A stretch of DNA of 64,000 bases, taken from NCBI GenBank assembly GCA_024641545.1, contig JAHECW010000003.1:1951-65950 (forward strand). The letters are read 5' to 3'. The position numbers were made by a program, and so were the translations under genes. The first letter of the stretch is position 1. Each line of letters starts with the position of its first letter. This stretch comes from Acidobacteriota bacterium (GTDB taxonomy: Bacteria > Acidobacteriota > Thermoanaerobaculia > Thermoanaerobaculales > Sulfomarinibacteraceae). This document shows, piece after piece, positions 3,578 through 52,437 of this stretch. Below the pieces are notes generated by a model. It worked only from the letters and a program-made list of their open reading frames with translations, was not told the DNA's origin and searched no databases.

Positions 3578-3700
3578 CGAGCGAGCGCTCGCTTCGCTCG
3601 CTGTAAGGAAGTAAGGAAGTGAGGAGGTTCCCTACCCTTCACTCTTCATTCTTCATTTCCTAACCCGCTAACCCCTAACTTCCTCACCTCCTCACCTCCA
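3571..3700 (+). repeat. E1-family partial copy: one 30-nt-type unit + purine words + pyrimidine words
   Basis: AGCGAGCGAGCGCTCGCTTCGCTCGCTGT overlaps the TAG stop (3575-3577). It is followed by TAAGGAAG TAAGGAAG TGAGGAGG (3605-3628), then pyrimidine words ending CTTCCTCACCTCCTCACCTCC (3679-3699), which can pair with the purine words. Confidence 0.75.
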
Positions 3701-3746: not shown

Positions 3747-4676
3747 ATGAAACCTGCACAGATTCCCGCATGCGCCCAGGGCTGGGAAGCGCTGCGCGGC
3801 GACTCCCTGGGTTGGCTGCTCGACCCGGAGCGGCCGAATCTCCACTGGCGGGTTCTGGTCGAGCTCGTGGGCCGGCCGCCGGACAGCCCCGCGGCGCGTC
3901 GGGCCCGCAGCGGCGCCAACGCCGCCGAACCCGTGGCGAGCCTGCTCGCCGAGCTTCATCCCGATGGGCGGTGGGCGACGGCGACGCCGTTGTGGAAGCC
4001 CTGCGCGGGGCCGGGTTGGCGCCTGATCGCGGCGGTGCAGTGGGGCGCCGATCCCGAGGATCCCCGGTTGCACGCGGCGTCGAAGCGCCTGCTCGAGACC
4101 GCTCCGGGTGATGGCGGGCTGGTTCGCCCGCGCGCGGCCCACCCGGATCCCCGGCTGACCGGCCGGGCCCTCGAAACCATGGTGGCCCTGGGCTGGGAGA
4201 AGCACCCGCGGGTTCAGGAGTGGCTCGCGTGGTTCGAGGCGACCGAGGGTTGGGAGGACGACCCGGCCACGGCGGCGGCGGTGCTCGCGGCAGGTCGCGG
4301 CGGACTGCGGCCGGTGCTCGCACAAAAGGCGGTCGAAGGGCTCGGGCGGAGGCTCGCCGAATCTCGAGGCAACCACTTCACCGCTCTCGGCCACCCGAAT
4401 CTCCTGCGCACCGACGCCGCCGAGATCTTCGCCGGGTTGGCGGCCGCGGGGATCGGGTTTCGGAGCGGGTGGCGGCGGTCCCTCGTTCAACTGCAGCAGG
4501 GTCAGGATCGGACGGGGAGGTGGTCCCGCCGGTCGCCGGTTCCCCGTTCGCTCGCGGTGCCCGAACCAGATCGGCCCTCGAAGTGGATCACCCTCAAAGC
4601 CACCAAGGCCCTGCTCGCCTACGCCGTCGAAGCGGAGTTGCCGCGGTTGTTTCCGTATCCACCAAAGCGACCGTAG
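3747..4676 (+). CDS. hypothetical protein, prenyltransferase/terpene-cyclase-like alpha-alpha toroid repeats (tentative)
   Basis: 309 aa with recurrent aromatic/Gly motifs (HPDGRWA, LWKPCAGPGWRL, LGWEKHP, TEGWEDDP). The TAG stop (4674-4676) is part of a REP GTAG head. Confidence 0.6.
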   Translation: MKPAQIPACAQGWEALRGDSLGWLLDPERPNLHWRVLVELVGRPPDSPAARRARSGANAAEPVASLLAELHPDGRWATATPLWKPCAGPGWRLIAAVQWGADPEDPRLHAASKRLLETAPGDGGLVRPRAAHPDPRLTGRALETMVALGWEKHPRVQEWLAWFEATEGWEDDPATAAAVLAAGRGGLRPVLAQKAVEGLGRRLAESRGNHFTALGHPNLLRTDAAEIFAGLAAAGIGFRSGWRRSLVQLQQGQDRTGRWSRRSPVPRSLAVPEPDRPSKWITLKATKALLAYAVEAELPRLFPYPPKRP

Positions 4677-4703
4677 GTGGGGCCGGCCCCAGTTCCACCC
4701 TAC
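4673..4703 (+). repeat. REP (GTAG-headed GC palindrome), upstream of RAYT
   Basis: GTAGGTGGGGCCGGCCCCAGTTCCACCCTAC: palindrome GGGGCC/GGCCCC plus an inverted GTAGGGTGG head. Confidence 0.75.
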
Positions 4704-4726
4704 GATGTGCGTGATATTTTTGCCAT

Positions 4727-5278
4727 ATGCCCAGGTACCGCAGAGTGAAGCTCGAAGGTGGAGTTTTTTTCTTCACCGTGGTGACGTTTCGACGCCGGCC
4801 CCTTCTGACTACTGAACGCGGTTTGCGGTGCCTTCGAAAGGCCTGGCGTGAGACCGGTGGAACCCGACCATTCGAGACCGAAGCGGTGTGCATTCTCCCC
4901 GACCACCTCCACACGATCTGGTCTCTACCCGAGGGTGACTCGGACTATCCGGCGAGGTGGAGGAAGCTCAAGGGGATATTCACCCGCGAGTATCGCAGGG
5001 CTGGAGGGACGTGGGTCGCTCCCGGCTCATCGAGGGAACGAAAAGGCGAAGCCGCGGTGTGGCAGCGGCGGTATTGGGAGCATCGAATCCGCGACGTTCG
5101 AGATTTTCGCCGCCACGTCGACTACATCCACTTCAACCCGGTGAAACACGGTTACGTGACCAACCTTGTTGATTGGGAGTGGTCGAGTTTTCACGATCAT
5201 GTGAAGAAGGGGTGGATCGAACCCGATTGGGGAACAATTGAACCCGACCATGTCGGCGTTCTTGACACGGGTGAATAG
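4727..5278 (+). CDS. rayT: REP-associated tyrosine transposase (RAYT; IS200/IS605 TnpA-like Y1 transposase)
   Basis: 183 aa. HUH motif LPDHLHTIW and catalytic Tyr region RHVDYIHFNPVKHGY. Flanked by GTAG-headed REPs. Confidence 0.85.
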   Translation: MPRYRRVKLEGGVFFFTVVTFRRRPLLTTERGLRCLRKAWRETGGTRPFETEAVCILPDHLHTIWSLPEGDSDYPARWRKLKGIFTREYRRAGGTWVAPGSSRERKGEAAVWQRRYWEHRIRDVRDFRRHVDYIHFNPVKHGYVTNLVDWEWSSFHDHVKKGWIEPDWGTIEPDHVGVLDTGE

Positions 5279-5316: not shown

Positions 5317-5545
5317 GTAGGGTGGGGCTGGCCCCACCTTCAGAGGCGTGCCTGCACGGGGTGTTTCCGCACGTCGGTCCGAAGCAGATATCGGGGCCGT
5401 GCGATCGGCGGGCAATGCCCTGAACCCGTCGAAAATGCTGAAGGTGGGGCCAGCCCCACCCTACGTCGAATCAGAGTCGTTCATGTACGGGGTGGTTCCG
5501 CACGTCGGTCCGAGACAGCTGAAGGTGGAGCCGGCCCCACCCTAC
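5317..5545. repeat. REP cluster (BIME-like): one forward and two inverted GTAGGGTGGGGC(T/C)GGC(C/T)CCACCTTCAG copies
   Basis: 5317-5343 forward. 5438-5464 is its exact reverse complement. 5519-5545 is inverted with 2 changes. A ~33-nt companion repeat ACGGGGTG(T/G)TTCCGCACGTCGGTCCGA..CAG occurs twice between them. Confidence 0.85.
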
Positions 5546-6471
5546 GTCGGATCGGGCGCGCCCTTCATCGTCGTGATCCTGAGGATGGACCCGACGAGCA
5601 CCAGCCCGCCGAGCCACTGCCAGGCGCCGAGTCTGGTGCCGTTGACGATGTAGTCGAGGAACACGGCGCTCAGGGGCAGGCAGAGCTCGCAGATGGTCGC
5701 CACGGTGGCCCTGACCCTGGTGAGACCCCAGTAGTAGAGGAAGATCGCGCCCGACCCGGTGGTCAGCGAGATGATGACGACCACGACCCAGCTCGCCCGG
5801 GTCACCGTGGCGAAAGGCAGCCCGACTCCGCCGGCGATCAGGTAGACCAGTGCGAGCACCGATGTCAGCCCGTAACGGGCGAAGGTGGCGGTCTTGAAAT
5901 CGACGCTGCCGAGCAGGAGCTTGCCGAAAACCGTCGCGGCGCCGAAACAGACCGCGGCCATCAGGGCGAAGAACGCGGCCGACAGAGTACGGTCGCCACC
6001 CTCGAGATCGGGCAGGGAGAAACCGAAGGTGAGGAGATAGCCGCCGGCGATCGCGGCGATCGCCCACACGACGAACCGCCCGGTCAGTCTTTCCTTGAGC
6101 AGCAGGGAGGCGAGAGAGATGGCGAAGACCGGCTGGAGCTTCTGCAGCAGGACGACGACGCTGAGCTGTTTGAAATCGACCAGAAAGAGCGCCTTGACGA
6201 TGAACATGGTGCCCATGAGCCCGCCCGCGAAGGCGACGGAGAAGAGCACCAGCCAGGTCGTGCGGTCAAAGTTGCGGAGTTTCTTCCAGCAACCGAAGAG
6301 CAGGGGCTGCATGAGGCCGAAGGGTAGGGCGTGGAGGAGAAAAACCACGAACGGCACGGCGATGCCGGACAGCCGGGGCGTGAGGACCACGCCGTCGAGG
6401 CCCCAGAGGGCGGCGGCCACGCAGATGGCGAGGGCGCCGACGGTGGTGGTGGATCGGTTCACGGCCACCAT
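5542..6471 (-). CDS. EamA/DMT family transporter
   Basis: 309 aa with about 10 TM helices in two homologous halves. The stop TAG is the GTAG head of the REP at 5519-5545. Confidence 0.8.
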   Translation of the reverse strand: MVAVNRSTTTVGALAICVAAALWGLDGVVLTPRLSGIAVPFVVFLLHALPFGLMQPLLFGCWKKLRNFDRTTWLVLFSVAFAGGLMGTMFIVKALFLVDFKQLSVVVLLQKLQPVFAISLASLLLKERLTGRFVVWAIAAIAGGYLLTFGFSLPDLEGGDRTLSAAFFALMAAVCFGAATVFGKLLLGSVDFKTATFARYGLTSVLALVYLIAGGVGLPFATVTRASWVVVVIISLTTGSGAIFLYYWGLTRVRATVATICELCLPLSAVFLDYIVNGTRLGAWQWLGGLVLVGSILRITTMKGAPDPT

Positions 6472-6496
6472 GATAGTTGAGAGTGAGAGTTTCCTT

Positions 6497-6718
6497 GGTA
6501 AGGAAGTGAGGAAGTGAGGAGGTTAGAAGGTTAGAAAGTGAGGAGGTTAGAAGGTGGGCCTGCTACAGAACTTGAACGCCTCCCGTGCACTCATGCGATG
6601 CACCTCCTCACAGCGCGCGAAGCGAGCGCTTACTTCCTGACCTCTTCACAGCGACCGGAGGGAGCGCTGACCTCCACACCTTCTCACCAGCGACCGAAGG
6701 GAGCGCTCACCTCCTACA
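6497..6718 (-). repeat. E1-family copy B (inverted relative to 521-720)
   Basis: Purine words TAAGGAAG TGAGGAAG TGAGGAGG TTAGAAGG TTAGAAAG (6499-6556). Core GGTGGGCCTGCTACAGAACTTGAACGCCTCCCGTGCACTCATGCGATGCACCTCCTC. Then three degenerate units CACAGCG..CG.AG.GAGCGCT.ACCTCC up to 6718. Confidence 0.85.
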
Positions 6719-7547
6719 GCTCCACCCCCATCGGTTTCTTCAGCGCGAAGGCGAAAACCATGGTCAGGACGAAGAAGACCACCATCCAGGCGAAGCTCCA
6801 CTCCCAACTCCAACCGAAGATCTCCATGGTCGCTTCGGGGTAGGCGATGGTGATGCGCCGGATCTGAGCGTCTCGGTCAAAGGGCGGCTCCGACGGCCAC
6901 TCGAGCTGATCCATGAATCCGGACGGCGGACGTTCGGGCGACAGACGCACGACCCGGTCGGTGACGCTCACGGTCTTGGTCGCCGTCGTGCCGCCGATGG
7001 TGAAGCCGAGCTCGTAGTCGCCGGGGGCGTCGGCGGCGAGCTCCCAGTTGAGCTCGCCGAGAGAGGGGACCCACACCGCCGGAGTCTCGAGGTGGAGGCC
7101 CTCGGGGACCTCGATGGCGAGATCAGGGCGCGGTCCGCCCGTGGTCGCCAGCTCGACCCGCAGCAGCGCGGTCTCGCCGGGCGCAAAGCCGCGAAAACCG
7201 TAGAACATGTGGAGCTGGACCATGAGCAGCACCAGCGGCGGCAGGATGAAGACCATGGGCACCAGCGCCAACCCCTGATAGCGCAGGACGTGGCCGGTGA
7301 TCTCCCACTGGGCCCTGGCGATGGCGCGGAGATCGTCGTTGAAGAGCCGGATCTCGAAGAGCGAGGCGGCGATCTTGTTCTTGACCGCGGTGATCTTGTC
7401 CTGATTCGAGGTCTTGCCGAAGACCCACAGGGCGAAGACCGACACCGGGATCGACCACACGATCACCCCGACCATGGCCGGCAACCCGCTCAGGGGCGCC
7501 TGCAGCCAGTCGATCACCGTGCCGAGCATCGCATTAAGACTCGTCAT
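6714..7547 (-). CDS. hypothetical membrane protein
   Basis: 277 aa with TM helices at the N-terminus, the middle and the extreme C-terminus, and a central soluble segment. It lies 17 nt downstream of the 7564-7758 ORF on the same strand. No family recognised. Confidence 0.65.
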   Translation of the reverse strand: MTSLNAMLGTVIDWLQAPLSGLPAMVGVIVWSIPVSVFALWVFGKTSNQDKITAVKNKIAASLFEIRLFNDDLRAIARAQWEITGHVLRYQGLALVPMVFILPPLVLLMVQLHMFYGFRGFAPGETALLRVELATTGGPRPDLAIEVPEGLHLETPAVWVPSLGELNWELAADAPGDYELGFTIGGTTATKTVSVTDRVVRLSPERPPSGFMDQLEWPSEPPFDRDAQIRRITIAYPEATMEIFGWSWEWSFAWMVVFFVLTMVFAFALKKPMGVEL

Positions 7548-7771: not shown

Positions 7772-7862
7772 GGGTGCCACGTTCACAATTGTTGAATTGT
7801 GCGGAAACCCCGCACCCTACGATTGTGAGCCACACAATTCAACAATTGTGAACGTGGCACCC
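7772..7862. repeat. perfect 28-30-bp inverted repeat with 31-nt spacer, carrying GTAGGGTG heads
   Basis: 7774-7801 GTGCCACGTTCACAATTGTTGAATTGTG is the exact reverse complement of 7833-7860. The reverse strand carries GTAGGGTGC at 7812-7820 and 7858-7866. Confidence 0.9.
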
Positions 7863-7868
7863 TACCGT

Positions 7869-10815: not shown

Positions 10816-11049
10816 CCTCGTCCGCGTCCGCGTCCGAGTCCGCCTCCGATGAGATGAGTTTCGCCAGACTGTCGCATTGATTGGTCGGTGGCTCGGCAGG
10901 AGATTCAGCCTGTTCTTTCCGCCCGAAAATCACACTGCCCGTCGTCACAATGGCTGCTGGTGAGCCGTATCCGCTCAGTGCTCGGTGTGGGCATCGCGAG
11001 CCGGTATGCTCGATTTCGGGCACGGACGCGGACGCGGACGCGGACGAGG
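10816..11049. repeat. MITE-like element: 21-bp perfect terminal inverted repeats made of hexamer (GTCCGC)n flanking ~190 bp
   Basis: 10816-10836 CCTCGTCCGCGTCCGCGTCCG is the reverse complement of 11029-11049. The element sits between convergent stops at 10812 and 11066. Confidence 0.7.
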
Positions 11050-11065
11050 ACTCGGACCGGGGCGT

Positions 11066-11556: not shown

Positions 11557-11700
11557 AATTATGAATTATGAATGATGAATTATGAATGCACCGCAGCGCG
11601 AATACTCAATTCTCAATTCTCAATTTTGAATTGCCATCGCGGGGCTTCCGATGCGACGGTGCGATCGTGCGATGCAATTCATAATTCACAATTCATAATT
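11557..11700. repeat. AT-rich 7-nt-word hairpin element
   Basis: Left arm (AATTATG)n at 11557-11588. Right arm (AATTCAT/AATTCAC)n at 11676-11700, complementary at about 22/25. Internal arrays AATTCTC x3 and GTGCGAT x3. Confidence 0.8.
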
Positions 11701-13123
11701 TCTTGAGTTCCGGCAGATACCAACAGACCACTTTGGGTTCGGTCATCTCCTGGAGCGAGAACTTGACCCCTTCCCGGCCCAGCCCCGATCCCTTGATCCC
11801 GCCGAAGGGCATGGAGTCGAGGCGGTAATCGGTGGAGTCGTTGATCAGGACGCTGCCGGCATCGAGGCCCTGGACCAGCCGGTAGCAGATCTCGATGTCG
11901 CGGGCGAACGCGGCGGCGTGGAGACCGTAGTCGGCCGAGTTGGCGCTCGCGATGGCGTCGTCGAGTTCGTCGAAGGGATAGAGGTTGACCGTCGGACCGA
12001 AGACCTCTTCATAGTGGATGGTGGCGTCGGCCGGAACATTCTCGAGCACGGTGGGCTCGACGAGGGCCCCGCTGCGGCGCCCGCCGGCGGCGATGGTGGC
12101 GCCCTTCTCGACGGCCTCGGCGATCCAACGTTCGACGCGCTCGGCCTCGGCCTCGGTGATCATGGGACCCATGTCGGTGGCTTCATCGAGCTTGTCGCCG
12201 ATCCGATAGGCCTTGGTCCGTTCGACAAAGAGATCGCGGAAGCGGTCGTAGACGTCGCGGTGGATGTAGATTCGCTGGACGCCGATGCAGTTCTGTCCGG
12301 CGGCCCAGAAGGCGCCGGAGACGCAGGTCTCGGCGGCCCACTCGACGTCGGCGTCCCGCCACACCACGACCGGCGAGTTGGAGCCGAGCTCCATGCCGAT
12401 CTTTTTCAGTCCGGCCCTGGTGGTGATGCGCTTGCCTGCCTCGAGCCCGCCGGTGAAGCTCACCATGCGGACCCGCTCGTCGGCGACCAGGGCGTCCCCG
12501 AGGACGGCGCCGTTGCCGGTGATGGTCTGAAGGACGTCCTTCGGCAGCCCGGCCTCGAGGAAGGCCTCGGTGAGCTTGAGCGCCGACAGGGGAGTGACGG
12601 TGGCGGGCTTGAGGATCACCGAGTTGCCGCCGGCGATGGCCGGGCCGAGCTTGTGGGCGACGAGGTTGAGGGGGTCGTTGAACGGGGTGATGGCGAGGAC
12701 GACGCCGATGGGAACGCGCTCGTAGTGACCGCGCCGGTGCTCGCCGCCGGGGAAGGAGTCGAAGGGGATGGTCTCGCCGTTGAGCCGCTTGGCCTCCTCG
12801 GCGGAGATGGTCAGGGTGTTGACCGTGCGGTTGGCCTCCTTGCGCGCCTCCCTGATGGTCTTGGAGCCTTCGCGCGCGATGGTGGTGGCGAACTCCTCGA
12901 CCCGGGCGGCGACGATGGCGGCGGTCTTGAGCAGGATCCGGGAGCGCTCGTAGGTCGTCATCCGCCGCGCCGTCGCGCGCGCCGCGAAGGCCGCGGCCAT
13001 GGCGGTTTCGACATCGTCGTGGGTGGCCGAAGGAACCGTGTCGATGAGCGAGTTGTCAAAGGGGTCGCGGACGTCGATGGTCTCGGCGCGATCGACCCAC
13101 TCGCCGGCGAGGAGCATGCGCAT
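11693..13123 (-). CDS. NAD(P)-dependent aldehyde dehydrogenase family protein
   Basis: 476 aa from MRMLLAGEW. Catalytic motifs MELGSNSP and GQNCIG, plus PFGGIKGSG. The start ATG overlaps the hom stop (ATGA at 13121-13125). Confidence 0.9.
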   Translation of the reverse strand: MRMLLAGEWVDRAETIDVRDPFDNSLIDTVPSATHDDVETAMAAAFAARATARRMTTYERSRILLKTAAIVAARVEEFATTIAREGSKTIREARKEANRTVNTLTISAEEAKRLNGETIPFDSFPGGEHRRGHYERVPIGVVLAITPFNDPLNLVAHKLGPAIAGGNSVILKPATVTPLSALKLTEAFLEAGLPKDVLQTITGNGAVLGDALVADERVRMVSFTGGLEAGKRITTRAGLKKIGMELGSNSPVVVWRDADVEWAAETCVSGAFWAAGQNCIGVQRIYIHRDVYDRFRDLFVERTKAYRIGDKLDEATDMGPMITEAEAERVERWIAEAVEKGATIAAGGRRSGALVEPTVLENVPADATIHYEEVFGPTVNLYPFDELDDAIASANSADYGLHAAAFARDIEICYRLVQGLDAGSVLINDSTDYRLDSMPFGGIKGSGLGREGVKFSLQEMTEPKVVCWYLPELKKL

Positions 13124-14139
13124 CAGGACCTCCCGAGGTGGATGAGATCGTTGAGCAGTGAGAATCCGGTCTCGCGGCGGCCGGCGCCGGGACCGACGAT
13201 GGTGACGTCGCCCAGCGTGTCGGTGGTGATGGTCATGGCGTTGGTGGCGCCGCCGACCCCCGCCAGGGGGTGGGTGGTGTCGACGAGCTGCGGACCGACC
13301 GAGGCGCGAACCGCGGCGCCGTCCCGCCAGACCCGGCCGATGAGCTTGTACTTCTTGCCGTCGGCGGCCGCGGCCTCGATCTGCGCCGGGGTGATTTCGG
13401 TGATCCCCCGGCACGGTGAGTCGGCGGGGCGCAGCGCTGCGCCGAAGACGGTGTTGGCGAGAATGGTGACCTTCGCAAGCGCGTCGAAGCCGAGAACATC
13501 GGCGTCGGGCACCGCCTCGGCATAACCGAGCTCCTGCGCCTCGGCGAGGGCGGCGGCGTAGTCCATCCCACCCTCCATCCGGGTGAGGATGAAGTTGGTG
13601 GTGCCGTTGAGGATGCCCTTCATTTCGGTGATCTCGGATCCGGCAAGGGTCTCGCGGACGAGGTTGAGCAGTGGGGTGCCGGCCATCACCGTGCCCTCGA
13701 AGAGGAAGCGGGCGTCGTTGGCGGCGGCAAGCTCGGTGAGCTCCTGCGATGCGAGCGCGGTCGGACCTTTGTTGGTCGTGGTCACCGACATCCCCTTGGC
13801 GAGAGCGGCGCGGATGTGGTCGGTGGCCGGCTGGCCGGTCTTGATGTCGGTGTAGGTGATCTCGCACATGACATCGGCATCGGCCTCGTCGATCATCCTC
13901 AGCGCATCCCAGTCGCAGCCGCCCGGCAGGGATGACAGCGGTTCGCCGGCGGCGGCCTTGGCGAGCGCGGCCTCGAGGTCGATACCGGCGGGGTTGTGAC
14001 AGCTGCCCTTGAGCATGTCCGAGATCCCGACGACGGTGCAGTCGAGGCCGTGGTTCCGTTTCAGGTCGACCTTCTTCTCGATGAGGAGCTCGGCGAGCCC
14101 CTGACCGACGGTCCCGAATCCGATGAGTAGCAGTTTCAT
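13123..14139 (-). CDS. hom: homoserine dehydrogenase
   Basis: 338 aa from MKLLLIGFGTVGQG (NAD fold). NGTTNFILTRM and DVLGFDALAKVTILAN are hom signature-like. Confidence 0.85.
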   Translation of the reverse strand: MKLLLIGFGTVGQGLAELLIEKKVDLKRNHGLDCTVVGISDMLKGSCHNPAGIDLEAALAKAAAGEPLSSLPGGCDWDALRMIDEADADVMCEITYTDIKTGQPATDHIRAALAKGMSVTTTNKGPTALASQELTELAAANDARFLFEGTVMAGTPLLNLVRETLAGSEITEMKGILNGTTNFILTRMEGGMDYAAALAEAQELGYAEAVPDADVLGFDALAKVTILANTVFGAALRPADSPCRGITEITPAQIEAAAADGKKYKLIGRVWRDGAAVRASVGPQLVDTTHPLAGVGGATNAMTITTDTLGDVTIVGPGAGRRETGFSLLNDLIHLGRS

Positions 14140-14170
14140 GTCGTTCTCCTTGAAGTCACTGATCTCGTCG

Positions 14171-14267
14171 CAACCACGAAGGCACAAAGGCACAAAGAAA
14201 TCACAAAGGAGTTGTGTTTGAAAACCCTTGGTGATCCCCTTCGTGTCTTGGTGTCTTTGTGGTTGTG
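14171..14267. repeat. 8-nt-word imperfect hairpin (CACNAAGN words)
   Basis: Left arm CAACCACGAAGGCACAAAGGCACAAAGAAATCACAAAGG. The reverse complement of the right arm reads CAACCACAAAGACACCAAGACACGAAGGGGATCACCAAGG. Mismatches recur every 4 nt. Confidence 0.8.
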
Positions 14268-14282
14268 GCGCATGGTCTCGCC

Positions 14283-15650
14283 TTAAATCTGTGCGAGGGC
14301 CTGGTCGAGATCGTCGATGGTGTCGGCGGGGTGCTCGGCGCCGACGCAGAGCCGGACCATGGTCGGTGGAATCCCGGCGAGCCTGCGCCCCTCCTCGCCC
14401 TGCTGTTGGTGGGTCGAGATCGCGGGGATCGTGGCGACGCTCTTGATCCGGCCGAGATCGGTGGCGCGGAAGGTCCGCTGCAGGCCGTCGAAGAAGACCC
14501 GGGCGTCGGCAGCTGAACCGCGGATGATGAATGACATGAGGTGGCCGTAGGCCGGGGTCTCGTCGTCGACCACTTTCATGTAACGCGAAGCCAGCTCGTG
14601 CAGCGGGTGGTGCTCGAGACCGAGGTAGTCGACCCGCTCGATCTTCGGGTGGTCGGCGAGATAGCGCGCGACGACCATGGTGTTCTGCGACATCTGCGCC
14701 ATCTTGAGCCGCAGAGTCCGCATCTCGTTGAGCAGATAGTGGGCGGAGATCGGGGTCATGCACGGGCCCGAGTCGCGGAACGGCCAGAGCTTGAGCCAGA
14801 GAGCGTAGTCGGCCCGTTGGTCGTCGTCGAGGTGGCGCGCGGTCAGCCCGTGGCGGGCGACGATGCCGCCGGCGATGGCGTTGCCGCCCGCCCCGGCGGT
14901 CTTGGACAGCGAGTGGACGACGATGTCGGCGCCGTGGGCGAGCGGCCGCATGAGAGCCGGCGTGGCCACGGTGGCGTCGACGATGAGCGGCAGTCCGTGG
15001 CTGTGGGCGAGCTCGGCCGCGGCCTCGAGATCGGTGCAGGCCTGTTGCGGGTTGGACGGCATTTCGGCGTAGAGGAAGCGGGTGTGCTCGTCGATGAGCG
15101 GCTCCCAGGCCTCGATCTTCCACGGTTCGGTGACCCAGCGGACCTCGGCGCCGCGCTCGGCCATCCGCAGGTTGAAGAGCTGGAAGGTGCCGCCGTAGAC
15201 CTGCGCGGTTGAAATGAAATTGATCGGCTCGTTACCGCGTCTGGCGACGAGCGGCTCGATCGCCTGCTTGATCGCCGACATTCCGGACGAGGTGCAGAGC
15301 CCGGTGGCGTCGGCGGCGCAGCCGTAGGACTCGAGCAGGGCCAGGGTTTCTTCGAGGTAGAACACCGTGGGGTTGTGGATCCGCGAGTAGCACCAGGTGG
15401 GAATCCGGTACGAAAGCGCGGCTTCCATCTCGTCCGAGTCGCGGTAGGCCTGGGAGGTCGACGGGAAGATCGGTTCGACGATCCCGCCCTGGCCGCCGGC
15501 GAAGGCCTCCTCGAGGCCGTACATCCCGTGCACCGCGATCGTGTCGAAGCGCAGCTTGCGGACCCTGGCGCGGAGCTCGGCCCGCTTGGCGGTGGCTGCC
15601 CGGGCGGCCTCGATGTAGCGATCAACACCGTTCATGGTTGCCGTGGTCAT
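14283..15650 (-). CDS. metY: O-acetylhomoserine/O-succinylhomoserine sulfhydrylase-like PLP enzyme (Cys/Met metabolism family)
   Basis: 455 aa from MTTATMNG with GGAGG upstream. PLP-lysine context HSLSKTAGAGGNAIAG. Collinear with the MetY/MetZ family. Confidence 0.8.
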   Translation of the reverse strand: MTTATMNGVDRYIEAARAATAKRAELRARVRKLRFDTIAVHGMYGLEEAFAGGQGGIVEPIFPSTSQAYRDSDEMEAALSYRIPTWCYSRIHNPTVFYLEETLALLESYGCAADATGLCTSSGMSAIKQAIEPLVARRGNEPINFISTAQVYGGTFQLFNLRMAERGAEVRWVTEPWKIEAWEPLIDEHTRFLYAEMPSNPQQACTDLEAAAELAHSHGLPLIVDATVATPALMRPLAHGADIVVHSLSKTAGAGGNAIAGGIVARHGLTARHLDDDQRADYALWLKLWPFRDSGPCMTPISAHYLLNEMRTLRLKMAQMSQNTMVVARYLADHPKIERVDYLGLEHHPLHELASRYMKVVDDETPAYGHLMSFIIRGSAADARVFFDGLQRTFRATDLGRIKSVATIPAISTHQQQGEEGRRLAGIPPTMVRLCVGAEHPADTIDDLDQALAQI

Positions 15651-15842: not shown

Positions 15843-15990
15843 CCTGCCCCTGCCCCTGCCCCTGCCGCTGCCGCTGATTGCTGTCGCTGCCGCTGCCGCT
15901 GCCCCTGCCGCTGTACCGTCTTGTCGGGAAAGGGAAAGGGAAAGGGAAAGGGAAAGGGAGAGGGAGAGGGAGAGGGGGGCGGGGAAAGAG
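15843..15990. repeat. hexamer-periodic arrays: (CCCTGC/CGCTGC)n then (GGGAAA)5(GGGAGA)3
   Basis: 15843-15914 is a pyrimidine-type array. 15926-15985 holds G3N3 tracts. It lies in the 419-bp metY/cysC divergent region. Confidence 0.85.
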
Positions 15991-17904: not shown

Positions 17905-18075
17905 CAGGCTGAGGCCCATTTTGGGGCCAACGCCCCCGCCGGCCGGGAGTCGACCACCTCCGTTAGCACTTCGCTCACTGTGGGGCCGGCGCCCCCGCCG
18001 GCCGGAGTTCATCGGCCCCGACAGCACTTCATTCATTGTGGCGCCGGCGCCCCCGCCGGCGTGAGTACCACCGAC
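17905..18075 (+). repeat. three tandem ~58-nt units, each with a CATTGTGG-headed GC hairpin (REP2 family)
   Basis: 17917-17950 CATTTTGGGGCCAACGCCCCCGCCGGCCGGGAGT. 17976-18007 CACTGTGGGGCCGGCGCCCCCGCCGGCCGGAGT. 18034-18066 CATTGTGGCGCCGGCGCCCCCGCCGGCGTGAGT. Stem GGCCGGCG/CGCCGGCC with loop CCCC. Confidence 0.85.
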
Positions 18076-19649: not shown

Positions 19650-19695
19650 CAGTGACAACCCCTGGTTTCGTGACTGGTGACTGGTGACCAGTCAC
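19650..19695. repeat. CAGTCACC-word array/palindrome
   Basis: GTGACTGGTGACTGGTGACCAGTCAC contains the perfect palindrome GTGACTGGT-G-ACCAGTCAC. The same word in the opposite orientation occurs at 31227-31254. Confidence 0.8.
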
Positions 19696-20361: not shown

Positions 20362-22038
20362 ATGAGCATTCGATCTCTGATTCTCGCGATCGCAGGCTGT
20401 ACCGGTCTCCTGGCGATCGCAGGCTGCGGCCCGGACCCGGTCGACGGGTTCATTGCCCGGGTCGACGATCTCGCCGAGCTCGATGACCTCGACGAGGAGA
20501 TCGAGTTCTCACAGCCCGAGGACTGGGTCGAGAGCTATCGGCCGGAGGCCGGTTCTCCGGGTTACAACCTGATTCTCTACCGCCGTCGTGTGCCCACGCT
20601 CATCGACATGCAGGGCCGGGTCGTGCACCTCTGGCCGAAGGTACGGGCGGTGGGTCGGGTTCGTCTCGACGAGAACGGCCGGCTGACGGTGATCGGCGTC
20701 GACAATATGATCAAGGAGTACGACTGGGACGGCAAGCTGACCTGGGCCTACGGCCTGCCGAGACCGGAGGACCTCCCGCACCACGATTTCGCCAGGCTCG
20801 CCAACGGCAACGTCCTGGTGCTGGCGCAGGAGGTCGAGACCCGCTCGGACTACCTGCAGGAGGTCGATCGGCGCGGCCGGGTCGTCTGGGAGTGGTGGCC
20901 GAGGGACTCTCTCGACGAGCACTTCCCCGATCGCGATCGGCGGTACCCCGATCCCACCCATGTCAACTCGGTCTTCGAGCTGCCCGAGAACCGGTGGTTC
21001 GACGACGGGGACGTCCGCTTCCGACCGGGCAACATCCTCGTCAGCGCGCGCAACCTCAACACCATCTTCATCGTCGAAAAGAGGAGCGGGGAGATCGTCT
21101 GGATGCACACCGACGGCCTCGACTTCCAGCACGAAGCGCAGATGGTGCCGAAGGGAGTGCTCGGCGCCGGCCTGGTGGTCTTTTTCAACAACGGTTATCA
21201 CGACCTCAACGCCTACCGGCGGAGCGAGATCAGGGTCATTCACCCCATCGACGGCCGACTGCTCTGGTCGTACTCGGCGCCGGACTTCTACTCCACCGTC
21301 GCCGGTGTCGAACAGGTTCTGCCCAACGGCAATGTCCTGATCACCTCGAGCGAGGGCGGCCGGGTCTTCGAGGTGACCCCGGAGAAGCAGATCGCGTGGC
21401 AGTGGATCCCTCCCTACCTGCCCATGCGGGTCATCCGTTACCCGGCGGTTTTCTGTCCGCAGCTGGCCGCGCTCGGTCCCCTGGACAGCCGGGCGGTGAA
21501 CCGTTCCGACCGGCACCCCTGGGTCGACATCGAGCTCGGACAGTACGCCTTCGGCGGCGATTACCGGGTGGCGACGCTCTATGGTCTCGTGCGTGAGGTT
21601 CTGCTCGATCCCAGCGGTTGCCGCGAGCTCCTCCTGCCCGTGGACCCCGTGCTCCAGGTCGCCTACGGTTTCGACGACACGGCGCTCGAGGGCGCGCCGG
21701 CCTCGGCGAGCTTTCGGGTCACGGTGCGCGACCTCGCGACCGGTGAGACCCGGGTCGTGATCGACGACACCCTCCACCCTTCCGGTGACGAGATCTTCCG
21801 CGACCGGTACGTGGCCGTTCCGGGTTTCGGTCTCAAGCGCGCCGAGCTCTGTATCGAGGCGTCGGCCGGGGGCGGGCGCGGGATCGGCGAGCTCCACCCG
21901 TCGGTCTTTCTGTCGAACCCTCGTTTCTACTCCCGGGTGCGGGCGCAGCTCAACCGAAAGTGGAAGGAGAGTCGGATCAGCCTCCAGGAGCAGGCGCTGC
22001 AGGAGCGCCAGCTCCGCGCCATCGGTTACGTGCAGTGA
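20362..22038 (+). CDS. arylsulfotransferase (ASST)-like beta-propeller lipoprotein
   Basis: 558 aa. Lipobox LLAIAGC. HHDFARLANGNVLVL...THVNSV...NILVSARNLNTIFIVEK...FQHEAQ resembles the ASST/Arylsulfotran_2 family. The C-terminus is QERQLRAIGYVQ. Confidence 0.7.
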   Translation: MSIRSLILAIAGCTGLLAIAGCGPDPVDGFIARVDDLAELDDLDEEIEFSQPEDWVESYRPEAGSPGYNLILYRRRVPTLIDMQGRVVHLWPKVRAVGRVRLDENGRLTVIGVDNMIKEYDWDGKLTWAYGLPRPEDLPHHDFARLANGNVLVLAQEVETRSDYLQEVDRRGRVVWEWWPRDSLDEHFPDRDRRYPDPTHVNSVFELPENRWFDDGDVRFRPGNILVSARNLNTIFIVEKRSGEIVWMHTDGLDFQHEAQMVPKGVLGAGLVVFFNNGYHDLNAYRRSEIRVIHPIDGRLLWSYSAPDFYSTVAGVEQVLPNGNVLITSSEGGRVFEVTPEKQIAWQWIPPYLPMRVIRYPAVFCPQLAALGPLDSRAVNRSDRHPWVDIELGQYAFGGDYRVATLYGLVREVLLDPSGCRELLLPVDPVLQVAYGFDDTALEGAPASASFRVTVRDLATGETRVVIDDTLHPSGDEIFRDRYVAVPGFGLKRAELCIEASAGGGRGIGELHPSVFLSNPRFYSRVRAQLNRKWKESRISLQEQALQERQLRAIGYVQ

Positions 22039-22039
22039 C

Positions 22040-22215
22040 GGAGGTGAGGGGGTGAGCTCTCCCTTCGGTCGCTGGTCAGAAGGTCAGCGCTCGCGATGCT
22101 CGCTGTGAGGGGTGAGGCCTTCCTCCAATCGGCAGTGAGGAGGCCCAGAGCATCAGGCCCCCGACTCTCTGACTTTCTCACTTTCTCACTCTCGTACGTC
22201 TCACGTCTCACCCCG
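22040..22215 (+). repeat. E1-family partial copy
   Basis: GGTGAGCTCTCCCTTCGGTCGCTGGTCAGAAGGTCAGCGCTCGCGATGCTCGCTGTGAGG matches the reverse complement of units in 6604-6718. It ends in words CTTTCTCA x2 and CGTCTCAC x2. Confidence 0.7.
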
Positions 22216-22216
22216 T

Positions 22217-22321
22217 CTACCTGATGTAGCCCAGGGATTCGAGGAGTGCGCGTTCCTCTTCGGTGATGCCCGCATCACTCGGTTTCGACCTTTTGAGGCA
22301 TGCCGTACAATGTCCGACCAT
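22217..22321 (-). CDS. candidate 34-aa CxxC peptide (or 3' gene remnant)
   Basis: MVGHCTACLKRSKPSDAGITEEERALLESLGYIR. Its ATG (22321-22319) interlocks with the ATG of the sulfatase-like gene (CATG). GC3 is only about 64%, so the coding signal is weak. Confidence 0.25.
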   Translation of the reverse strand: MVGHCTACLKRSKPSDAGITEEERALLESLGYIR

Positions 22322-31226: not shown

Positions 31227-31254
31227 CCAGTCACCAGTCACCAGTCACCAATCA
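31227..31254. repeat. (CAGTCACC)3 word array
   Basis: CCAGTCACCAGTCACCAGTCACCAATCA lies between convergent stops at 31191 and 31252. Confidence 0.8.
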
Positions 31255-52357: not shown

Positions 52358-52437
52358 CGCAAAGACGCAGAGTCCGCAATCAGGATTGCAACGAGCGGAC
52401 GGCTGACCGTTCCTTTCGAGGCCCCTGCGTCTTTGCG
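52358..52437. repeat. 13-bp perfect inverted repeat hairpin between convergent genes
   Basis: CGCAAAGACGCAG (52358-52370) and CTGCGTCTTTGCG (52425-52437), with inner GTCCGC/GCGGAC and TTGCAACG x2. Confidence 0.8.

Follow-up and report, generated by a model that had tools for sequence, protein, structure and literature searches.

A word-built hairpin between metY and hom of an Acidobacteriota genome as a probable copy of a dispersed palindromic repeat family

A hairpin of tandem words in the metY-hom spacer

The 64,000-nucleotide stretch of DNA analysed here (the window; contig JAHECW010000003.1 of an Acidobacteriota bacterium) carries, between a metY-like gene and hom, a long imperfect hairpin whose arms are made up of tandem words of the form CAC-N-AAG and its reverse complement. 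Palindromes built from such words form a dispersed repeat family, with insertion polymorphism between related genomes, genome-specific dialects and carriage on contigs of tailed phages. We consider it probable that the window hairpin is a copy of this family, which resembles repetitive extragenic palindromic (REP) sequences and MITEs (miniature transposable elements with inverted repeats), and that it would function as a messenger RNA hairpin within a metY-hom unit rather than as a terminator. An intergenic palindromic repeat of short tandem words, with a grammar of fixed triplets and free positions and common to bacteria and phages, is apparently undescribed.

The hairpin occupies a 143-nt spacer between two co-directional genes, for both of which the minus strand is the sense strand. 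It starts 12 nt past the metY stop codon and ends 26 nt short of the hom ATG; the guanine-plus-cytosine (GC) content of the window is 66%. The features of the locus are listed below, where handles such as L005 stand for loci of other genomes and contigs.

14283 to 15650, minus strand: upstream gene, Cys/Met-metabolism pyridoxal phosphate enzyme, O-acetylhomoserine sulfhydrylase-like (metY); PF01053, E 1.9e-83
13123 to 14139, minus strand: downstream gene, homoserine dehydrogenase (hom); PF00742, E 9.3e-58
14144 to 14151, minus strand: Shine-Dalgarno-like AAGGAGAA of hom, between the element and the ATG; read from the sequence
14166 to 14270, no strand: whole palindromic element, an imperfect hairpin of 42 pairs; from folds, pair table and inverted repeat
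14166 to 14174: left half of the outer stem, CGTCGCAAC, pairing with 14262-14270; family terminus AAC plus a subfamily extension common to L005
14175 to 14209, plus strand: left arm, four words CACGAAGG, CACAAAGG, CACAAAGA and (AAT)CACAAAGG; from invariant alignment columns
14210 to 14225: apical part, a 3-bp inner stem and a 9-nt loop (AGTTGTGTTTGAAAAC); from the pair table
14226 to 14261, plus strand: right arm, four words CCTTGGTG, (ATCC)CCTTCGTG, TCTTGGTG and TCTTTGTG, the reverse complements of CACNAAGn
14262 to 14270: right half of the outer stem, GTTGTGGCG; from the pair table

An earlier note, made from the letters of the window, had placed a long imperfect hairpin at 14171-14267. The hairpin is indeed present and slightly longer, with a total of 105 nt, complementary arms of ~45 nt each and no open reading frame (ORF) of its own. 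RNA of the plus strand folds at -60.5 kcal/mol (z -8.09) and RNA of the minus strand at -46.1 kcal/mol (z -4.61), and none of 200 shuffles equalled the fold on either strand. Tandem Repeats Finder (TRF) reports a period of 8 with 2.9 copies on each arm, the iteration being imperfect since the fourth word position (N4) and the spacers vary, and an independent repeat finder returned 32-nt inverted arms at the same place.

The arms are each built from four octamers, which have the form CACNAAGn in the left arm and nCTTNGTG in the right one. The pattern CACNAAGNCACNAAG has four exact matches within the hairpin, against a window-wide expectation of 0.05 even when up to one mismatch is allowed. The pair table contains 37 Watson-Crick and 5 G.T pairs. 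As the note had proposed, the CAC and AAG positions pair and the N positions mostly do not: all 24 invariant positions are in Watson-Crick pairs, and the G.T pairs and mismatches of the word region are confined to word positions 4 (N) or 8 (n). The mismatch period of 4 nt was likewise recovered, as 3-bp blocks with single mismatches between them on the minus strand; several of these positions become G.U pairs on the plus strand.

Gene order is kept over ~20 kb between the window and related loci from metagenome-assembled genomes (MAGs), the flanking genes being syntenic core metabolic genes. The homoserine dehydrogenase of the window shares 92% identity with its L001 counterpart, and 85-88% with those of L002, L003 and L006. 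Judged by this synteny and protein identity, the window comes from a Thermoanaerobaculales-like lineage of the Acidobacteriota. The spacer itself differs from genome to genome. In the window it carries CACNAAGN; in L001 it contains (GACGTGA)11 opposite CGTCTAA/CCCTAAC arrays, where each word once more has one mismatch; in L039, L002 and L003 it contains arrays of the AAGTGAGA/CCTTCTAA type plus a AGCGCTCGCTTCGCTCGCTGT module. In L006 only ~20 nt without an array separate the genes, and the spacer is also short in the more distant L013 and L021-L023. The expectation that words turn over while the architecture persists was thus confirmed for this spacer among orthologues in five related Acidobacteriota MAGs. 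Furthermore, the distance of ~20 nt between metY and hom in relatives implies that the two genes are co-transcribed.

Copies in related genomes, metagenomes and phage contigs

Arms of four CTT-N-GTG words, in the same polarity, occur at non-orthologous sites in L001 (4130-4295) and L039 (13155-13330), and L005 carries a single arm (about 1200-1245) that shares the terminal GTGGTTGCGAC of the window. An alignment of such arms (alignment A1) has invariant CTT.GTG columns. The L001 and L039 copies are missing from the orthologous spacers of the other genomes.

Sequences were scanned for AACCAC-N-AAG followed by two further words; the metagenome and viral counts are lower bounds. At least 120 metagenome stretches, on contigs with a GC content of 0.33-0.72, and at least 120 stretches of viral contigs contain the pattern, with up to five copies in 12 kb in the latter. 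Among the proteins of the viral contigs are some that look like terminase, portal and tape-measure proteins, a reading made without a family search. In some bacterial contigs, a CAC-N-AAG copy stands past nearly every gene.

The letters at the free positions are characteristic of the contig. Copies lying more than 400 nt apart on the same contig have the N triplet in common in 63% of cases, compared with 15% between contigs, and an identical three-word arm in 9.3% compared with 0.3%. Three viral contigs (L217, L258, L259) have intergenic regions that consist almost wholly of mosaics of different tandem words beside CAC-N-AAG arrays, with words such as CACAGATGAA, GACGGCT and CAGAGGG and a dialect per contig; the rare CACTAAG is used throughout L258.

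Architecture and sequence constraint

Anatomy and context were counted on genome and metagenome loci, among the matches listed. From the outside to the inside and back, the element reads T-N-AAC, then CAC-N-AAG-R with zero to two further letters (three to four times), a variable loop, CTT-N-GTG (three to four times) and GTT-N-A. The CAC-N-AAG arm precedes the CTT-N-GTG arm in 59 copies and follows it in 7, and the number of words per arm, 3-4, is near-constant across the 59 paired copies. In contrast to the arms, neither the length (1-212 nt, median 29) nor the sequence of the loop is conserved. At the termini T-N-AAC/CAC and GTG/GTT-N-A, seen in 58 paired copies, the AAC and GTT triplets are 90-98% conserved, even on the arm that lies outside the search pattern.

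The N4 position is filled by G (41%), A (37%), C (20%) and T (2%), and the AAG triplet is followed by 1-2 purines, so that the CAC arm is essentially free of T; about half of the words give AAGG(A), and ~40% continue with A. When the partner of each pattern-found arm was aligned, complementarity amounted to 0.94-0.99 for the six fixed positions, compared with 0.69 for N4 and 0.49 for the spacers. Because CAC and AAG are fixed and complementary in both arms while N4 and the spacer are nearly free, mismatches recur every 4 nt. The periodic mismatch is therefore a property of the family and not of the window copy.

Word position 2 covaries between the arms (A-T 268, G-C 14, G.T 10, A.C 10), and full CGC-N-AAG / CTT-N-GCG elements exist in the family. 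A probable sister element of this kind lies in the window at 52358-52437, with the compensated word CGC-A-AAG / CTT-T-GCG and the outer stem ACGCAAAGACGCAG / CTGCGTCTTTGCG. It folds at -42.1 kcal/mol (z -3.86), and a similar element is found in an L006 spacer (6283-6598). At an orthologous phage locus, L202/L221 and L238 differ at 3 positions in ~150 nt, all of them at N4 or in spacers: the array keeps its three words while the N and spacer letters change.

A dispersed element within a probable transcription unit

Paired copies lie between co-directional genes in 20 cases, between convergent genes in 15 and between divergent genes in 6. For the co-directional copies the median position is 21.5 nt past the upstream stop codon and 120 nt ahead of the following start, in agreement with the gene-end placement proposed earlier.

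We favour the view that the window hairpin is one copy of a REP- or MITE-like family. New copies would arise by copy-and-paste, via trans-mobilisation or gene conversion, and the repeated words may provide multiple recognition sites for a putative protein. In the window, the element is probably transcribed within the metY-hom unit, which would place a stable stem (-46 kcal/mol in the sense RNA) right after the metY stop codon. Such a stem would most likely act as a barrier to 3'-exonucleases or as a processing site, uncoupling the stability of the two cistrons, and hom would keep its own ribosome-binding site AAGGAGAA downstream of it.

Several points weigh against this view. No target-site duplication and no flank conserved beyond T-N-AAC were seen in 58 paired copies; clustering of the proteins in ~1 Mb of flanks returned no recurrent protein family or transposase beside the metagenome copies; and no array pair enclosing an ORF, as expected of an autonomous parent element, was found in the same flanks. 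Mobility is thus read from the distribution of copies only. The one REP-associated tyrosine transposase (RAYT) of the window is flanked by GTAGGGTGGGGCYGGCCCCAC repeats and not by CAC-N-AAG arrays, and is not an obvious mobiliser of the hairpin. The window copy stands at the degenerate end of the family, with Watson-Crick pairing in 0 of 4 N4 pairs and one G.T pair on the plus strand. Its antisense (plus-strand) RNA folds better than its sense RNA, and among paired copies sense and antisense stability split 10:10, so that there is no sign of selection for a sense RNA stem. For the same reason, G.U pairs were rejected as a mark of the functional RNA strand. All context figures derive from crude ORF calls in metagenome and viral loci. 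The triplets are strongly conserved across GC contents of 0.33-0.72, an observation that a conserved host reader would explain no worse than a selfish element would. Finally, the solo arrays of viral contigs are sense-biased (87 vs 27, made up of ++ 57 against -- 21 and inside-sense 30 against inside-antisense 6, based on a codon-bias-filtered gene call), and in L202, L221 and L238 the last word overlaps or supplies AAGGAG 8 nt before an ATG. A role in RNA function or translation, to which this bias and the Shine-Dalgarno-supplying array point, is not foreseen by a pure mobile-DNA model.

RNA-level function as an alternative

The viral sense bias and the sequence conservation across GC contents keep alive a second explanation, which we regard as a minority possibility: the element would be functional for host or phage rather than selfish, and the CAC-N-AAG-R array would be a cis element at the RNA level, whose reader would be a conserved, sequence-specific single-strand binder or else the ribosome. 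More specifically, the U-free array would give intercistronic leaders a platform for binding or standby, or one that resembles a Shine-Dalgarno sequence; the CUU-N-GUG arm, part of the element itself, would act against it, and the hairpin would be a conditional switch of next-gene translation or read-through.

The frequent position of viral solo arrays in short spacers ahead of start codons is in line with this explanation, as are the ~150 nt of the L202/L221/L238 locus that are invariant apart from N and spacers, the conservation of sequence beyond mere pairing, and the purine spacers that yield AAGG(A). Candidate readers are cold-shock-domain proteins, S1 and the 3' tail of 16S rRNA, and GUCUUUG in the CUU arm may resemble the heptamer preference of cold-shock proteins. 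On the other side, no binding protein was identified. Furthermore, solo arrays in the metagenome show little strand bias, paired copies lie nearer to the upstream stop than to the next start, and the equal split of sense and antisense stability also speaks against an RNA-level role. Those words that continue with A and not G make a poor Shine-Dalgarno sequence, and in the window hom has a separate Shine-Dalgarno sequence while the array is buried in the sense stem. ORF starts within 60 nt of solo arrays gave no signal, the opposite-strand control being equal (59 vs 58). An analogous proposal has been made for TAACTGA repeats upstream of start codons (PMC4679880).

Word arrays as a habit of the genome, and the question of private words

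The hairpin stands in a genome that is rich in short tandem words. TRF detected 18 arrays of period 6-9 in 10 of the 15 intergenic regions of the window (3,190 nt), compared with a mean of 0.11 and a maximum of 2 arrays in dinucleotide shuffles of the same regions. A survey of the window and 80 related genome loci (~1.2 Mb) identified period 7 as the commonest array class, with 95 distinct words among 148 arrays of period 7 or 8; where a partner array lies within 200 nt, it is inverted for 42 arrays and direct for 11. The genome-wide habit of short-word arrays that the earlier note had suspected is therefore real, and periodicity exceeds that of shuffled intergenic sequence. A sliding minimum-free-energy z-score scan of the window intergenic set is indicative only, as the crude gene calls missed real genes.

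The same note had gone further and proposed that each locus amplifies its own word, so that the stem would have been built in place by slippage from a locus-private invention. The abundance and diversity of arrays in the window and its relatives, and the different words found in the same spacer of different genomes, agree with such a process, as do orthologous arrays that vary in copy number. In two Holophagae MAGs, L022 and L023, CATTTCA occurs x9.7 and x3.9 (12848-12915 and 12840-12866) and AATCTGC x6.3 and x4.4; (GATCCC)n hairpins likewise differ in copy number between L039 and L006. The L022/L023 differences indicate slippage-type dynamics for word arrays other than CAC-N-AAG. The CAC-N-AAG words behave otherwise. 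They recur at other sites in L001, L039 and L005 and in the metagenome and viral stretches described above, and at these unrelated loci, on hundreds of contigs, termini, polarity, variable positions and the number of words per arm (3-4) are all the same; repeated de novo origin of the same 7-mer, the AAC/GTT termini and the polarity is very unlikely. Other words are not private either: GTGACTG arrays (CCAGTCA being the reverse complement by rotation) lie at both 19670 (19650-19695) and 31227 (31227-31254), 11.5 kb apart, which contradicts the idea of one word per locus, and words of the AACCTTCT type were seen in 5 genomes. We therefore reject the private-word model for the hairpin locus, where its probability is slight; it stays reasonable for arrays that vary in copy number between relatives.

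It is highly improbable that the hairpin is a factor-independent terminator, possibly bidirectional, that ends the metY transcript: a long stable stem 12 nt past the stop codon, the enrichment of the family between convergent genes and close to stops, and family flanks in which a weak A-rich tract lies to the left and a T-rich one to the right speak for it, but no T-run follows the stem on either strand of the window hairpin, a terminator/promoter consensus scan of 13900-14500 gave 0 sites, the lineage uses canonical terminators of GC stem plus T-tract elsewhere (for example in L001 and L002 spacers), the short metY-hom distance in relatives implies co-transcription, and solo arrays without a hairpin belong to the same family.

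Comparison with known repeat classes

We compared the family with several described classes. Rfam gave 0 matches at the gathering threshold across the whole window, and at a permissive E-value the locus gave only sub-threshold generic hairpin matches to miRNA models. A blastn search of the consensus element against INPHARED phages and PLSDB plasmids returned no match and is uninformative, since the low-complexity filter probably masks the query.

REP sequences and bacterial interspersed mosaic elements (BIMEs) are palindromes of 20-40 nt with a GTAG or CGTC tag and are associated with RAYT transposases; mRNA stabilisation is among their proposed roles (Di Nocera et al. 2013, PMC3733652). The family shares with them its high copy number, its short imperfect palindromes, its extragenic position at gene ends and between convergent genes, and its genome-specific types (PMC3733652). 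Unlike them, the CAC-N-AAG element is built of tandem words and is untagged: with 105 nt, termini T-N-AAC/CAC and neither a GTAG nor a CGTC tag, the hairpin does not fit the REP/REPIN class. The RAYT of the window (4727-5278, plus strand; NF047646, 181.8 bits vs a cutoff of 80) forms a classic REPtron with the GTAG-tagged palindromes GTAGGGTGGGGCYGGCCCCAC at 4672-4706, 5317-5337, 5444-5464 and 5525-5545. The gene is conserved at the syntenic position in L001, and its REPs have nothing in common with the word hairpins.

MITEs such as Correia, ERIC and RU are 70-250 nt long, have terminal inverted repeats, are dispersed in intergenic regions with insertion polymorphism and are co-transcribed with their neighbours. 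The CAC-N-AAG element is likewise small (105 nt), non-coding and bounded by inverted repeats (~45-nt arms), and its dispersed copies are polymorphic between relatives (present in the window, L001, L039 and L005, with empty sites in relatives). It departs from MITEs in that its inverted repeats are internally tandem-repetitive, in that the flanks of the 58 paired copies show no target-site duplication, and in that solo arms are common and, in phage contigs, strand-biased. No parent insertion sequence was found in ~1 Mb of flanks.

The family can also be compared with phage-borne repeats. SAS/ESAS of cluster K mycobacteriophages are 13-bp motifs upstream of many starts that include the ribosome-binding site, some copies having inverted repeats; they belong to one phage cluster and are not known to be common to host chromosomes. 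The CAC-N-AAG family resembles them as a short phage-borne repeat at starts and differs in its tandem words and its occurrence in bacterial contigs as well.

Heptamer repeats come closest in their building material. Cyanobacterial STRR heptamers, described by Mazel and colleagues in 1990, are reportedly tandem and non-coding. Long simple sequence repeats (LSSRs), as summarised from Mrazek 2007 in PMC4679880, have units of 5-11 nt dominated by heptamers, lie in intergenic DNA, are attributed to slippage and have a sporadic phylogenetic distribution, with Acidobacteriota not among the taxa described in that summary. The period-7 excess in the window and related loci recalls LSSRs and STRRs, and the hairpin has a head-to-tail unit of suitable length in intergenic DNA, with imperfect iteration. 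LSSRs and STRRs are defined by tandem iteration alone, whereas in the CAC-N-AAG element the inverted architecture is fixed, the termini are conserved and copy number hardly changes, with no slippage variation beyond 3-4 words per arm in 59 paired copies.

GGGAATC heptamer arrays of Xanthomonas, studied as G-quadruplex formers, make up 70-75 facing, stem-loop-capable pairs per genome in intergenic regions, where the upstream ORF is near (~28 nt) and the following one distant, with length and sequence varying between close relatives; each genome uses one G-rich word, and its perfect copies may number as many as 14 or more (Rehm et al. 2015, PMC4692102). These pairs are likewise tandem short words, inverted, intergenic and near the upstream ORF. 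In contrast, the CAC-N-AAG family has free positions, 3-4 copies per arm and AAC/GTT termini, and spans a wide range of taxa and GC contents as well as phage contigs.

In marine Beggiatoaceae, Cyanobacteria and Bacteroidetes, the heptamer TAACTGA forms direct repeats of 2-6 tandem copies a few nucleotides before start codons, with a patchy occurrence across phyla; a post-transcriptional reader (S1, Csp or CsrA) has been proposed for them, inversion is very rare (one indirect repeat among 170 sets), and no hairpin form was described (MacGregor 2015, PMC4679880). They resemble the solo CAC-N-AAG arrays of phage contigs, with a different word.

An integron attC site was excluded because the termini TCGCAAC and GTTGTGG miss the consensus RYYYAAC...GTTRRRY and the flanks are syntenic core metabolic genes. 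A CRISPR array, a parS site or DnaA box and a Type I restriction-modification site were, like attC, dropped by eye for lack of fit. The earlier statement that no described element class has this property holds in part: a search of the accessible full-text literature for CAC-N-AAG arrays as literal strings found no paper, whereas heptamer simple sequence repeats and the inverted pairs of Xanthomonas had been published.

Broader implications

Through this analysis, a single odd hairpin becomes part of a definable repeat family with a searchable signature, namely AACCAC-N-AAG words whose polarity is fixed and some of whose positions are free. Uncultured bacteria of soil and sediment carry the family in abundance, as do phage contigs, and it appears neither in Rfam nor in the searchable literature. 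Such families are useful as markers that link phages to hosts and as natural experiments on the origin and upkeep of intergenic hairpins. The results also extend the phenomenon of long simple sequence repeats and heptamers to Acidobacteriota, and show that in Thermoanaerobaculia-like genomes the intergenic word arrays found at fixed positions turn over very fast.

The constraint itself, two invariant triplets with a free base between them, in tandem and in both arms, predicts a specific reader molecule. Oligonucleotides such as (CACGAAGGA)3 and (UCCUUCGUG)3 could serve to fish out this predicted reader. A more speculative and rather unlikely extension is that the arrays are the cis half of an undescribed regulatory system common to Acidobacteriota-type bacteria and their tailed phages. 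A conserved single-strand reader, protein or ribosome, would then recognise the two fixed triplets in tandem; solo arrays would be intercistronic translation platforms, and the palindrome would be a self-masked conditional switch at gene ends. Carriage and spread of the arrays by phages would, on this view, account for both the new chromosomal sites and the genome-specific dialects.

Other repeats of the window and its relatives

The window contains further word hairpins and arrays. Past the aldehyde dehydrogenase gene, a nested hairpin at 11557-11700 has outer arms of (AATTATG)4 and (AATTCAT)3.6 and an inner part of (AATTCTC)3.6 and GTGCGAT-type words; the orthologous spacers of L001, L039, L006 and L002 hold ordinary terminator-like hairpins with GC stems and A and T tracts. 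Between convergent genes, (CGTCCG)5 at 10819-10848 faces (CGGACG)5.8 at 11023-11057, ~175 nt apart. This spacer has the same layout with more copies in L003 and a CAC-N-AAG element inside it in L039. The region upstream of the metY-like gene carries (CTGCCG)11.5 and then (GGGAAA)8.5 (15844-15976), where relatives have a short GC hairpin instead. Also between convergent genes, a 58-nt tandem repeat (x2.7) at 17917-18072 carries the GC-rich palindrome GGCGCCCCCGCCGGCC in each unit, and the content of this position differs in relatives. In L039, a degenerate counterpart of the GTGACTG array site at 19650 is present.

Two inverted copies of a composite element of ~190 nt lie ~5.8 kb apart, at 535-713 and 6501-6723. 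The composite consists of a 30-38-nt unit containing AGCGCTCGCTTCGCTCGCTGT and of 8-mer arrays such as AGGAAGTG, AGGTTAGA and CACCTTCT, and related pieces are found at 3580-3700 and 22030-22229. Spacers of L001, L002, L003 and L039, both orthologous ones and others, are filled with its modules, which L006 lacks. By look, the composite words GGAGGTGA / TCACCTCC may resemble Shine-Dalgarno and anti-Shine-Dalgarno sequences.

A second hairpin family, with the termini GGTGCCAC...GTGGCACC, is represented in the window at 7779-7866 and 1907-2006 and in relatives at L001 16067-16158, L039 16396-16409, and L006 16157-16245 and 17314-17327. The 7779 hairpin (z -7.8) has conserved arms and a variable loop at the same site in L001, L039 and L006, with an extra copy elsewhere in L006; L002 has a (CTCCCT)n/(AGGGAG)n word hairpin at this site instead, and L003 has none. 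The 1907 hairpin has the same termini and CGCATTG words.

Finally, ACGGAT/ATCCGT words (e.g. ATCCGTGTCCCATT) occur by the same gene start in three MAGs (L001 ~4340-4370, L039 ~3900-3930, L006 ~4150-4200) and in an unrelated metagenome contig (L103), and may constitute a conserved regulatory site.

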